Assembly (NCBI GenBank): GCA_000004985.1
Contig: GG739246.1
Source of the DNA: Naegleria gruberi
Taxonomy: Eukaryota
Strand: one strand, 5' to 3'
Length of the DNA: 2,773 bases
Shown: one piece after another, positions 1 to 2,773 of the stretch
Position numbering within the stretch: position 1 is the first letter of the stretch
How the letters are laid out: each line of letters begins with the position of its first letter
Translations under genes and position numbers: made by a program
Notes under the pieces: generated by a model
What the model was told of the DNA's origin: nothing
What the model saw: the letters and a program-made list of their open reading frames with translations, nothing else
Databases searched by the model: none

Positions 1-358
1 TATTCCTTTTCAACTCCCAAAATAAGGAATATTGACAAGTCAATTGATTTTGAGTAACAATAGCAGGGACATTAATCATCTTGGGATTGGTAAGGAAAGA
101 AAACTTTTGATTTCCACTCCAGTCAAAGTCATCATGATAATGAACCTCAAAATAACCTCTAAAATGTCCCAATTCAAAGAAGTACGTCGGAATTACCTGT
201 GTATCTACATCATGAATACTATCCAAGTTATAAAACATGACATGTTTTTCAAAGCTTTCCCTCACCATCACCAACACCATTATCAATACCAACACTAAAC
301 ACCACCTATGGCTATCAAACAAGTGTGCATGCGTGCGTTCAATCTTTTGCATCTTCAT
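1..358 (-). CDS. 5' part of a gene running off the left edge (ATG at 358..356). Product begins MKMQKIERTHAHLFDSHRWCLVLVLIMVLVMVRESFEKHVMFYNLDSIHDVDTQVIPTYFFELGHFRGYFEVHYHDDFDWSGNQKFSFLTNPKMINVPAIVTQNQLTCQYSLFWELKRN... A signal-anchor or signal-peptide-like N-terminus; family not recognised
   Basis: Hand translation of the minus strand gives 119 stop-free codons from ATG down to position 1. An in-frame TAG lies about 20 codons upstream of the ATG. This ORF is missing from the supplied track only because it has no stop inside the window. A charged N-terminal segment followed by a 14-residue hydrophobic core resembles a type II membrane or secreted protein. The plus-strand ORF 32..298 is its antisense shadow. 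Confidence 0.55.
   Translation of the reverse strand, partial: MKMQKIERTHAHLFDSHRWCLVLVLIMVLVMVRESFEKHVMFYNLDSIHDVDTQVIPTYFFELGHFRGYFEVHYHDDFDWSGNQKFSFLTNPKMINVPAIVTQNQLTCQYSLFWELKRN
263..280. repeat. Three tandem hexamers CACCAT/CACCAA/CACCAT (minus strand ATGGTG TTGGTG ATGGTG) inside the coding region of the 1..358 gene. They encode the hydrophobic core MVLVMV
   Basis: Read directly from the sequence. It is a short imperfect tandem repeat and also produces the His/Gln-rich antisense ORF. Confidence 0.5.
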
Positions 359-419: not shown

Positions 420-450
420 TTTTTACTCTGCCTTATAATGTGGAGATTTT

Positions 451-458
451 AGCGCGCT
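451..458. repeat. Perfect 8-bp GC palindrome AGCGCGCT in an AT-rich intergenic spacer
   Basis: Read directly from the sequence. It is the only GCGCGC in the window. Confidence 0.5.
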
Positions 459-477
459 GTAAAAAAGATTTAAGGGT

Positions 478-483
478 TCATTT
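478..483 (-). promoter_or_regulatory. Possible variant poly(A) signal AATGAA about 97 nt downstream of the kinase stop
   Basis: No exact AATAAA occurs between the stop at 580 and the next gene's start at 358. AATGAA is a commonly used variant hexamer in several metazoa. Position alone supports it. Confidence 0.15.
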
Positions 484-579
484 TGAAACAGTAAATGGTT
501 TACAATGAGTAGTTGATACCAAGTAGGGATGACTAGAAAGTATTTGTTAAAATATTCTCTCAATGGAATTTTGCAGCTA

Positions 580-1198
580 TTAAATACTTCTTGTTTCTAA
601 TAACTGTTCAGCAAGTTTTGAAAAGGAAGGCCTTTGATAGAAATCTTCACACCACGAACATTGTACCATGGAAAACAATGCATCAAGAACTGTTAAATGC
701 TTTTCAAAAGGATCTTCCTGCCTAATTATGCTTAATCTCTTTGCTTGATTCAAATCATCTTTAATGAAATATTCTCTAATCCACATTTTCATAATTTGAG
801 ATTGGGGATTAAGAGGCAATTTTGGAAGAGGTAGACGTAATCCTTCAGATATTAGTTTTGGAACTAGAAGGAGAGAATTCTGATTTGCAATGTGTGCAAA
901 TGTTTCACCTTCCTGTGTTGGCATGATTGTGGAATACTTTTGATTAGTTCCATAATTGTACTGGAATATACAATTCTCATCAAATATTAATTGCCACATT
1001 ATGATGGCAAAGCTATAGACATCTGACTTTTCATTATAATTTTTACCTAATAGAACTTCTGGAGCCATGTATAGCAAAGAACCAACTTGTCCTGTTTTGG
1101 TGGTTTTTGAATTATCGTTTGAAAGTTTGGACAATCCAAAATCACAAACTTTTGGTGTTAAATCATTAGAAAGTAAAATATTGCCTGGCTTTAAATCT
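580..1198 (-). CDS. Protein kinase catalytic domain, 3' exon (subdomains VIb-XI, stop TAA at 580-582). Ser/Thr or TKL-like: ...RDLKPGNILL...DFGLS...APE...DVYSFAIIMWQL...RPSF
   Basis: The 208-codon open frame carries DLKPGN (the R codon is split across the intron), DFG at 1135-1143, APE at 1057-1065, DVYSF, and RPSF near the C-terminus. An open frame this long is very unlikely by chance at 65% AT (roughly 7% stop codons per codon). All 13 Gln are CAA/CAG, so the standard code applies. A double stop TAATAG ends the frame. Confidence 0.85.
864..908 (-). other. Candidate in-frame 45-nt intron inside the kinase exon (GTGAAAC...TTCTCTCCTTCTAG); spliced and retained forms both keep the frame
   Basis: The sequence shows CAG GAA G|GTGAAAC, and 45 nt later AATTCTCTCCTTCTAG|TT. 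That is a good donor plus a pyrimidine tract with a TAG acceptor. The length is 3n and stop-free, so the ORF alone cannot decide. Splicing would remove GETFAHIANQNSLLL from an unusually long insert. Confidence 0.3.
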
Positions 1199-1233
1199 CT
1201 GATCATTAATAGAATTGTTTTGAATCAACTCAC
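1199..1233 (-). other. Spliceosomal intron, 35 nt, GTGAGTTGATTC...TTAATGATCAG on the minus strand
   Basis: The upstream exon ends ...GTA ATT ATA CAT AG followed by a textbook donor AG|GTGAGT. Left unspliced, the frame hits TGA at once. Removing 1199-1233 joins CAT AG|A GAT TTA AAG, which reads IIHRDLKPGNILL. That is the canonical kinase catalytic loop, so the intron is strongly supported by protein homology logic. Confidence 0.75.
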
Positions 1234-1394
1234 CTATGTATAATTACACAATTATCCTTTCCTCCATGTAAATACCTCATTCCATTAGCAATTCCAATAA
1301 GAATTGATATCTTTACTCTCAAATCAATATATTTCTTCTTTAGTTTACATTCATAAATTAATTTTTCCACACAACCTCCATGAAAAGACGGTAA
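1234..1394 (-). CDS. Protein kinase exon encoding alphaE / subdomain VIa up to the catalytic His: ...LPSFHGGCVEKLIYECKLKKKYIDLRVKISILIGIANGMRYLHGGKDNCVIIH. The true 5' boundary (acceptor) is unresolved
   Basis: This frame is shifted from exon 2 by the 35-nt intron. LIYECKLKKKYIDLRVKISILIGIANGMRYLH aligns with the LYxLLHxKKxxLxxxxRLxMAxDIAxGMxYLH pattern of TKL kinases. The frame is bounded upstream by an in-frame TAA at 1395-1397 and contains no ATG before the GM of GMRYLH. It therefore cannot be a first exon. Confidence 0.7.
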
Positions 1395-1617
1395 TTATAA
1401 TAGAAACGAAACCACAAACTGAACAGAAGGCAAGAATTATGAAAGGAACAATGAGAAGAGTGTTGAATCTGCAAGAATATGCATAATCTCCTTCAATAAT
1501 CTTATCCTCTCTCATTAAAATATACCAAGGTGGACATGAATTTACAGAAAATGGGACTGAAATACTAGCTGTAAAGCTCTCTGTTGTAAAAAAGGTAGTT
1601 TTGATTGTTAATGTCAA
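1351..1617 (-). CDS. Hypothetical ORF with a single strong TM-like helix (LLIVPFIILAFCSVCGFVSIIITVF) and a basic stop-transfer (SWRLCGK). It ends at a TGA overlapping the 5' end of kinase exon 1 in another frame. A first ATG at about 1517 would give a 62-aa product
   Basis: This is an 88-codon open frame that the track starts at a TTG. By my estimate, roughly one ORF of this length is expected by chance in a window of this size and composition. The minus strand is T-rich here, which inflates hydrophobic ORFs. It is reported as a possibility only. Confidence 0.2.
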   Translation of the reverse strand: MTLTIKTTFFTTESFTASISVPFSVNSCPPWYILMREDKIIEGDYAYSCRFNTLLIVPFIILAFCSVCGFVSIIITVFSWRLCGKINL

Positions 1618-1678
1618 TGTAGAACTAGGCTGGTTGAGTAATCAAGAAACTTTGATTCAACAATAATTACAGTAAGAA

Positions 1679-1740
1679 CTGAAAGAGATGATAAATATAA
1701 GGAGTGATATTCATCATTGGGAACTTTGTTGGAATATTAC
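1679..1740 (-). other. Candidate 62-nt intron GTAATATTCC...TCATCTCTTTCAG
   Basis: A GTAATA donor sits directly after a complete codon. The pyrimidine tract ending TCTCTTTCAG matches nematode-style TTTCAG acceptors. The downstream exon in phase 0 would read FLL then TAA. Confidence 0.3.
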
Positions 1741-2006
1741 CAATCTCATTTCCAAAAGTTCTTCCAACGAAGAAACATTTTTGAGTATGGTATGATGTAA
1801 TTCAGTTGGTAGTTGAGTAAAATTAAATTCCTCTCCACTATTGGCTTTCTCATTCACATCAATAGGAGGTAATACTGTTTGATTGGCTCCATAAAAATAA
1901 TTGAAATCAACGAGAGGCAAATGGTTCATGTGAAATAGTACCGTCCTTTCCAATTCTGCATCTCCTGAAGTGGCTATTTCAAACGAAGGAACTGTCCGAT
2001 CGGTCA
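1741..2006 (-). CDS. Candidate internal or terminal exon of an unresolved gene: ...TDRTVPSFEIATSGDAELERTVLFHMNHLPLVDFNYFYGANQTVLPPIDVNEKANSGEEFNFTQLPTELHHTILKNVSSLEELLEMRL
   Basis: It is preceded by an excellent acceptor, TTTTCTTCTATTTCTTGCCTATTTAACAG| at 2007/2008. It ends at a strong donor, TTG|GTAATA at 1740. Only this frame is open across the segment; the other two carry many stops. There is no ATG before FHMNH. I could not chain it to an upstream exon, and every downstream acceptor I tried leads into a stop within 13 codons or fewer. Confidence 0.35.
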
Positions 2007-2269
2007 CTGTTAAATAGGCAAGAAATAGAAGAAAATTCGAATATGGAATTTTCTATTTGTAAGGTACCACCCCAATAATATAGCACTCATATAACCTGCC
2101 TTAAATCTCGAATTTCTTATTACAATGTAAAACTGTTTCACAAGATTAAAATGTATCTTTGAACCAAGGTTTAGAATTGTGTTTTCACTAGTTGAAGAGT
2201 TAATTGTTTTAAGAAAGTCTAATTTTGATTGAGTTCCCACAGTTACATTGTCAAGCGTAAGTTTACCAC

Positions 2270-2761
2270 TTATTTCATTAACATAAATAATTCTTCAAAA
2301 ACACAATTCTGAATTTCAATTTGACCATCAAAATCCAGGTTCAACCGTAAATTCAAATTTGAAAATTTAAGAGGAACAATATCATAATATTTAACAAAGC
2401 CTACACAGGATTTTCTTGTTGTCAAGGAAGTAATGTGTAGGCTCTTAATGTTCCAATTATTATTAATAAAACCAACACACATCACATCGTCATCCATAAT
2501 ATTAAATTGTACTGCCAGATTAGATGTATTAGTACTATTCATCTTCATTAATAAATCAAGTGCATATTTAATTGTATTGCATGGTTTTTTAGCTGATGAA
2601 CATTTTTCATTATCCAAGCCCTTTCCACTTAAATATATTTCCCTTATTTCTTCCTGTAATGCTAAGGAGGAGGAAATTAATAGAATTATAGAAAGGATCA
2701 TCACCACAATCATCCTTACCATCGAATGGTGATGTATTGTGCTGTAGCATGAATTCCTCAT
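2270..2761 (-). CDS. Small protein (163 aa if unspliced), ATG at 2761 with TAA four codons upstream, stop TAA 2270-2272. Shows an apparent signal peptide, then a Cys/Asn-containing domain with NST/NTS glycosylation sequons (...KCSSAKKPCNTIKYALDLL...)
   Basis: The 163-codon ATG-initiated ORF has varied, protein-like composition, and the other frames are full of stops. Residues 15-36 (VRMIVVMILSIILLISSSLALQ) sit after a basic n-region and look like a cleavable signal peptide. I recognise no domain with confidence. Confidence 0.6.
   Translation of the reverse strand: MRNSCYSTIHHHSMVRMIVVMILSIILLISSSLALQEEIREIYLSGKGLDNEKCSSAKKPCNTIKYALDLLMKMNSTNTSNLAVQFNIMDDDVMCVGFINNNWNIKSLHITSLTTRKSCVGFVKYYDIVPLKFSNLNLRLNLDFDGQIEIQNCVFEELFMLMK
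2654..2719 (-). other. Candidate 66-nt in-frame intron (ATG|GTAAGG...CCTCCTCCTTAGCATTACAG|G). It coincides exactly with the hydrophobic signal-peptide-like segment of the 2270..2761 ORF
   Basis: The donor is GTAAGG, and a strongly pyrimidine-rich tract ends in TTACAG. Length is 3n with no stop. The same bases therefore either encode VRMIVVMILSIILLISSSLALQ or are removed. Sequence alone cannot decide. Confidence 0.3.
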
Positions 2762-2773
2762 CTCACAATTTTA

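Follow-up and report, generated by a model that had tools for sequence, protein, structure and literature searches.

At its 5' end, a Naegleria gruberi gene carries a hydrophobic coding stretch whose first and last nucleotides read like the ends of an intron. The question raised by this locus is whether these nucleotides are translated, as the core of a signal peptide, or whether they are spliced out of some or all transcripts, leaving a protein that lacks a targeting sequence. The window, meaning the whole stretch of DNA analysed here, is an entire small N. gruberi scaffold of 2773 bp. In this genome, the GC content is 33%, genes have 1.7 exons each and introns average 203 bp (PMC8296547).

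The segment at issue lies on the minus strand, where ATG/GTAAGG...TTACAG/G (slashes mark the putative boundaries) brackets the 66 nt from 2719 to 2654. GTAAGG occupies 2719-2714; at the other end, TTTCCTCCTCCTTAGCATTACAG extends to 2654, and the next base, at 2653, is G. The length is a multiple of three and the frame contains no stop. The first-pass annotation had listed these boundaries, this length and this open frame, and each is present in the DNA. From the same donor, a competing unit reaches an earlier AG at 2662, and its removal leads to a frameshift and a premature stop (Table 1).

Architecture of the locus

The ORF at 2270..2761, a transmembrane (TM) segment and a kinase share one orientation on the minus strand. 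The ORF is the opening part, ~160 codons, of a receptor-kinase gene that is far longer and is broken, and the earlier description of it as a stand-alone secreted protein is replaced by that of an N-terminus. The layout of the gene is a signal peptide, a beta-helix-like ectodomain, a single TM helix and, on the cytosolic side, a TKL kinase. Tblastn of the spliced protein of locus L003, together with Pfam, places the copy in the L003-type receptor-like TKL family: the homologous ectodomain, the single TM segment and a kinase C-lobe with HRD and DFG are all present in the window.

The comparison loci L001-L004 come from ENA sample ERZ929261 (project PRJEB11402), which is labelled a metagenome; a literature search for the project found no paper. 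Contigs of this sample are nearly identical to NEG-M genes, and the sample evidently holds a close Naegleria strain.

A protein search matches the 208-aa ORF at 580..1206 with 100% identity to a 'predicted protein [Naegleria gruberi]'. The Pfam families Pkinase and PK_Tyr_Ser-Thr match this ORF over the C-lobe only. The public model (MIRDLKPGN...) begins at the ATG at 1204..1206 (-), inside the genuine 35-nt intron of the gene (..TTAATGATCAG/A). Because this ATG lies within a real intron, the public annotation is an ORF call on a gene fragment, and its N-terminus is not real. As an annotation point, the 208-aa model overlooks the decayed receptor-kinase pseudogene at this locus. The protein searches yielded no transcript or EST from the locus.

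The downstream ORF at 1..358 has a hydrophobic N-terminal segment of its own (MKMQKIERTHAHLFDSHRWCLVLVLIMVLVMVRESFEKH...), and at the end of its hydrophobic stretch it also spells ATGGTGAGG (M-V-R). Pfam searches of this ORF and of the ectodomain pieces matched no family. A ciliate origin, with TAA and TAG read as Gln, was considered and ruled out: the long ORFs are free of in-frame TAA and TAG, the kinase stops at a TAA just past RPSF, and the host is Naegleria gruberi.

Table 1. Coordinates of features in the window and of homology-defined introns in related loci
Feature	Locus	Position	Strand	Description
First ATG of gene	window	2759..2761	-	Probably the family's start codon; long n-region MRNSCYSTIHHHS follows
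Second in-frame ATG	window	2720..2722	-	Directly 5' of GTAAGG; initiation at this codon would leave MVR plus h-region, a minimal signal peptide
ORF A, 163 aa	window	2270..2761	-	Signal peptide and start of beta-helix-like ectodomain; premature end from 2-nt insertion
Candidate 'intron', 66 nt	window	2654..2719	-	Very probably coding; translates to VRMIVVMILSIILLISSSLALQ, covering n-region end, h-region and c-region of signal peptide; predicted cleavage SLA/LQ, 2660/2659
Competing 58-nt GT..AG unit	window	2662..2719	-	First AG (CCTTAG) past branch-like TTAAT; length mod 3 = 1
12-mer AATTCTATTAAT	window	2676..2687	-	Identical to 12-mer within the gene's real intron; encodes I-I-L-L-I here
2-nt insertion relative to near-identical L001	window	2283..2284	-	First frameshift; ...EELF/VNEISGKLTLDNVTV goes on in another frame
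Decayed ectodomain remnant	window	1640..2269	-	L003 homology jumps among all three frames and crosses stops
Single TM segment LLIVPFIILAFCSVCGFVSIIITVF	window	1384..1458	-	Aligns to L003 aa 638-720
Kinase exon HGGCVEK... to ...VIIHR	window	1234..1382	-	Joined directly, out of frame, to TM segment
Genuine 35-nt spliceosomal intron GTGAGT...TTAATGATCAG	window	1199..1233	-	Splits HR/D
Kinase C-lobe exon DLKPGN...DFG...APE...RPSF	window	580..1198	-	Through TAA stop
Second, downstream ORF MKMQKIERTH...WCLVLVLIMVLVMVRE	window	1..358	-	From ATG 358; runs off scaffold end
Introns	L002	72..122 and 447..488		Homology-defined
Introns	L003	2775..2817, 3861..3907, 4232..4275		Homology-defined
Intron	L004	1924..1976		Homology-defined

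Conservation of the N-terminal hydrophobic segment

The hydrophobic run comprises residues 17-35 counted from the ATG at 2761, or residues 4-22 from the ATG at 2722, and a basic residue, R16, directly precedes the h-region MIVVMILSIILLI. The signal-peptide call is based on hydropathy and the (-3,-1) rule; this rule and the von Heijne n-h-c architecture are the established basis for inferring targeting and cleavage. The Kyte-Doolittle 12-residue maximum is 3.62 in the window, with the -3/-1 site SLA/LQE. In the paralogues P0123 and P0125 the maxima are 3.39 and 2.78, and the sites are LLA/HQQ and SLA/NNV, respectively. The hypothetical spliced product reaches a maximum of 0.77, with no N-terminal hydrophobic segment and no -3/-1 site.

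These two paralogues are the only ones with a recovered N-terminus; the loci L006 and L007, reached through distant kinase matches, provide none, as their genes run off contig ends. In a full HMMER scan with the 163-aa ORF, P0123 (453 aa) aligns with 42% identity (E = 5.6e-13; query 16-156 to 18-153) and P0125 (519 aa) with 30% identity (E = 6.9e-6; query 20-157 to 28-165), and both alignments pass through the hydrophobic stretch. In a three-way alignment, each N-terminus consists of a hydrophobic run followed by the conserved motif ..C....PC.TI.Y..D.L (in fuller form, ..G.D...C....PC.TI.Y..D.L). The n-region aligns weakly (IHHH versus IHQP), with H10 invariant. A check against homologues had been proposed in the first-pass annotation, and here its outcome is positive: both paralogues keep the hydrophobic stretch in their protein sequence, aligned at the same place. 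Used as a query, the three-sequence alignment (A1) gave no match at E <= 0.001 in a profile search and a single locus, the apparently bacterial L005, in a metagenome scan.

At the DNA level, the signal-peptide sequences of L003 and L004, the contigs that carry these two paralogues, differ from that of the window and are without any GTRAG; ATT CTA (I-L) recurs in both. Alignment of the window to L003 DNA contains only indels of 3n over the first ~480 nt, and none at minus-strand positions 31-143, an interval that spans the 66 nt. As the peptide is shared by the family and GTRAG is absent from the paralogues, the splice-like appearance is private to the window copy.

The mature N-terminus of the window (2540..2650, minus strand; IYLSGKGLDNEKC..PCNTIKYALDLL) resembles the YV...G.D..G....P..TI.YA+ start motif of bacterial and phage-like parallel beta-helix proteins. 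The motif occurs directly after a signal peptide in L005 (1987..2169) and is carried internally in P0126-P0128, which are phage- or bacteria-like beta-helix proteins. This resemblance hints that the Pfam-less ectodomain may be a right-handed beta-helix.

Introns of the gene family

Protein homology fixes seven introns exactly: one in the window, two in L002, three in L003 and one in L004 (Table 1). L002 and L003 have introns of 42 and 44 nt, respectively, at the HR/D position of the 35-nt window intron. All seven begin with GTRAGT and are 35-53 nt long, with a GC content of 0.24-0.30, a pyrimidine fraction of 0.27-0.60 over the last 15 nt and stops in at least two frames each. Beyond the invariant donor, a CTAAT- or TTAAT-like motif can be seen by eye ~8-16 nt before the acceptor. 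At these lengths, the kinase-family introns are much shorter than the mean of 203 bp published for the genome.

The candidate has the GT...AG boundaries of an intron (GTAAGG...ACAG) but lacks the donor hexamer, length and composition of the family. It is 66 nt long, carries G rather than T at +6 of the donor, and combines a coding-like GC content of 0.35 with a pyrimidine fraction of 0.73 and no in-frame stop. The branch-like motif lies 23 nt from the CAG, as against roughly 8-16 nt, judged by eye, in the seven real introns. Nor do the homologues lack residues at this place, as they would for an intron: hydrophobic residues align there, and the DNA has no gap. The earlier label of a 'consensus' intron thus fits the generic eukaryotic consensus but does not extend to this family, whose introns have GTRAGT, 35-53 nt, 24-30% GC and no pyrimidine tract.

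One further GT..AG-like stretch, a putative ectodomain intron GTACCT...TTTAACAG (~2070-2011), was considered and rejected. It encodes LYYWGGTLQIENSIFEF, which is homologous to LYYWDGNLQIENCSFDY in L003.

Frequency of intron-like patterns in coding DNA

Intact coding sequence from these Naegleria loci, 8.6 kb in all, contains GTRAG at a density of 0.82 per kb. The density is 1.17 per kb for in-frame GTRAG..YAG units of 30-150 nt and 0.12 per kb for those that also have a pyrimidine-rich 3' end. One such chance unit is a GTAAGG inside conserved coding sequence of L004 (...SSKEVIVRNS...). When MVRMIVV...LALQ is recoded with local codon usage, GTRAG appears in 26% of random synonymous encodings, CAG in 18% and both in 4.6%. 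Coding DNA makes up 57.8% of the 41 Mb N. gruberi genome (PMC8296547). Scaled to ~23 Mb of coding DNA, thousands of such in-frame units are expected genome-wide. The intron-like pattern of the candidate is not above chance.

The 12-mer AATTCTATTAAT is the sole 12-mer repeated on the minus strand of the window, once in the candidate (2676..2687) and once in the real intron (1205..1216). The repeat has a shuffle p of ~5e-5, and none of 200 window shuffles reproduces it. In the proven intron this 12-mer likely holds the branch site, and the copy in the candidate contains the branch-like TTAAT. A third copy lies in an intergenic part of L001 (465..476) and is followed by CAACAG; the word is over-represented relative to composition.

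Degeneration of the gene copy

The reference for an intact gene is L003, which yields a protein of at least 966 aa after removal of its three homology-defined introns. This protein contains a signal peptide, a ~650-aa ectodomain, one TM helix, a juxtamembrane region and a complete TKL kinase. By tblastn, the window has counterparts only for aa 36-246, 638-720 and 854-966, and these lie in different frames. The window lacks about 290 ectodomain codons (L003 aa ~340-637), and it has no counterpart of the juxtamembrane region or of any part of the kinase N-lobe (aa 721-853). Missing from the kinase are alpha-C, the Gly-rich loop and the VAIK lysine, and the TM segment runs directly, out of frame, into HGGCVEKLIYE (1382). 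The copy therefore has no complete kinase domain in one intact frame. In the DNA alignment to L003, the 2-nt insertion is followed by further indels of 5, 2, 1, 11, 32, 41 and 7 nt, none a multiple of three.

Because the kinase N-lobe is absent, the TM segment is fused out of frame, and indels other than 3n and stops interrupt the remainder, the gene copy at 580..2761 (-) is, judged by its sequence, a decayed receptor-like kinase pseudogene. As such, it could yield at most a 163-aa fragment. With the gene broken downstream, no functional pair of secreted and cytosolic isoforms is available, and isoform biology is moot here.

A Euplotes-style programmed frameshift at the AAA-TAA that ends ORF A was considered and rejected; L001 is simply without those 2 nt, and many frame breaks follow. 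L001 (785..1414) matches the window (2772..488) with 95-99% identity at the gene's 5' end and in its 3' flank. L001 is the more deleted of the two copies, lacking 86 nt and 1572 nt, the larger loss running from mid-ectodomain to just past the stop. Judged by eye, each breakpoint of the 1572-nt deletion falls in an ATTT(T)AAT word, a pattern suggestive of loss through microhomology. DNA elimination as the cause of the L001 deletions was rejected on the same grounds as the ciliate origin.

Discussion

Taken together, the data indicate that the minus-strand segment 2719..2654 is very probably translated coding sequence, forming the core and cleavage region of a Sec-type signal peptide rather than an intron. 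Its intron-like ends are best explained by chance. The proposal that had led the first-pass annotation was an intron, either retained or alternatively spliced, by which the protein would be secreted in one form and cytosolic in the other. It is not supported, on three counts: the stretch is conserved in paralogues without the donor, it is unlike the real introns, and its host is a pseudogene. The explanation that the same annotation had held in reserve, coincidental splice-like signals within a T/C-rich signal-peptide stretch, gains support from the paralogues, the local introns and the chance rates.

If the segment is translated in this way, expression of the peptide would involve: initiation at the ATG at 2761, or possibly at 2722; binding of the h-region MIVVMILSIILLI by SRP and delivery of the chain into the ER through Sec61, as in the standard secretory pathway; and cleavage by signal peptidase after S-L-A. 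The mature end would then run from LQEEIREIYLSGKGLDNEKC to PCNTIKYALDLL, which is the start of the conserved ectodomain. The intron-like ends would be by-products of the amino acids encoded. Met-Val-Arg would be written as ATG GTA AGG, the Ile, Leu and Ser codons would produce the T/C-rich run, and Leu-Gln would be written as TTA CAG.

The strongest rival is that the 66 nt form an exitron, or cryptic intron, removed from some transcripts to give a signal-less isoform (MRNSCYSTIHHHSM/EEIRE...) beside the secreted or membrane form. The first AG downstream of a branch site is the one normally used; here that AG follows the branch-like motif at 58 nt and would lead to a premature stop, not to the 66-nt in-frame product. 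The donor TG/GTAAGG does fit the U1 consensus at -1 and from +1 to +5, and the 12-mer AATTCTATTAAT is common to the branch region of the real intron. The spacing of 23 nt between the branch-like A and the CAG nevertheless departs from the roughly 8-16 nt estimated by eye in the seven real introns, and 66 nt falls outside the family range of 35-53 nt. The segment is GT..AG-bounded, 3n and stop-free, and its GC content exceeds that of real introns, as in exitrons (PMC4484396); intron retention has also been reported in N. gruberi (PMC6142364), for which RNA-seq is available (PRJEB23822, cited in PMC6142364). Any such splicing would be private to the window copy, as neither paralogue has a corresponding donor. 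Loss of the signal peptide would mis-target a type I receptor, and the break downstream leaves no functional isoform pair. This reading is unlikely. That some cryptic or exitron splicing occurs at a low level, with either 66 or 58 nt removed from some transcripts, is distinctly unlikely.

A constitutive intron misread as coding would imply that the true protein has no signal peptide and that a T-rich intron happens to translate into hydrophobic residues. Apart from the splice-like ends, which would be expected of it, the features of the segment argue the other way. It forms a textbook n-h-c signal peptide, placed exactly as in two paralogues whose ORFs are uninterrupted; its DNA is collinear and gap-free with L003 coding sequence; and its composition, length and absence of stops are unlike those of the seven real introns. 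The paralogue alignment brings this reading close to refuted, and it is extremely improbable. A variant of the main explanation, in which the stretch is translated as an uncleaved signal anchor, draws on the uncharged run of 19 residues (MIVVMILSIILLISSSLAL), which is enough to span a membrane, and on an n-region that is long if translation starts at the ATG at 2761. The small -3/-1 residues SLA are, however, shared with P0125 (SLA) and similar in P0123 (LLA), the family already has a C-terminal TM anchor, and the conserved ectodomain motif starts a few residues past the predicted cleavage site. An uncleaved anchor is thus highly unlikely.

Very probably, then, a decayed receptor-kinase pseudogene begins here with a Sec-type signal peptide of the ordinary kind. 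The biological weight of the segment is small. It offers a worked example of signal-peptide codons that imitate a donor, a pyrimidine tract and an acceptor, and the question is settled by the paralogue comparison together with locally defined introns. Were the exitron reading true, this would be the first heterolobosean case of splicing that removes the signal peptide from a member of a receptor-kinase family, and a modest addition to a mechanism known already. Exitron splicing has been described in plants and humans.

Relation to known systems

With the short introns of its own family, the candidate shares GT..AG ends, a GTRAG donor, a yTnAy-like TTAAT and the 12-mer AATTCTATTAAT. It differs from them in being longer (66 versus 35-53 nt), in its donor (GTAAGG versus GTRAGT), in its GC content (0.35 versus 0.24-0.30), and in being pyrimidine-rich and stop-free where they are stop-rich.

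Exitrons are alternatively spliced, stop-free internal parts of coding exons with lengths of 3n, and some of them encode signal peptides, which in Arabidopsis their splicing removes (Marquez et al. 2015, PMC4484396). The candidate is likewise part of a coding exon, 3n in length and free of stops, with GT..AG boundaries and a GC content above that of bona fide introns of the same genes. Exitrons are, however, defined by junction reads, and the candidate is described here from its DNA; its paralogues are without the donor, its first AG is out of frame and its host is a pseudogene.

Cleavable Sec/SRP signal peptides of the n-h-c type are a further point of comparison. Like them, the window peptide is N-terminal and has a basic residue before a hydrophobic core of 13-19 residues, with small residues at -3/-1 (S-L-A), the mature domain directly after and a position kept in paralogues. 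The predicted peptide has no structural difference from this class; its sole oddity is the set of codons that spell GTAAGG...TTACAG.

Single-pass receptor-like kinases occur in protists and plants, for example the transmembrane kinases of Entamoeba and the plant RLKs. The Naegleria family has the same layout, in which a signal peptide and an extracellular repeat domain are followed by a single TM helix and a TKL-type kinase in the cytosol. In place of Cys-rich or LRR repeats, its ectodomain is without a Pfam match and resembles the start motif of parallel beta-helix proteins. The window copy departs from this layout, being frameshifted and without the kinase N-lobe, whereas the paralogue L003 retains it intact.
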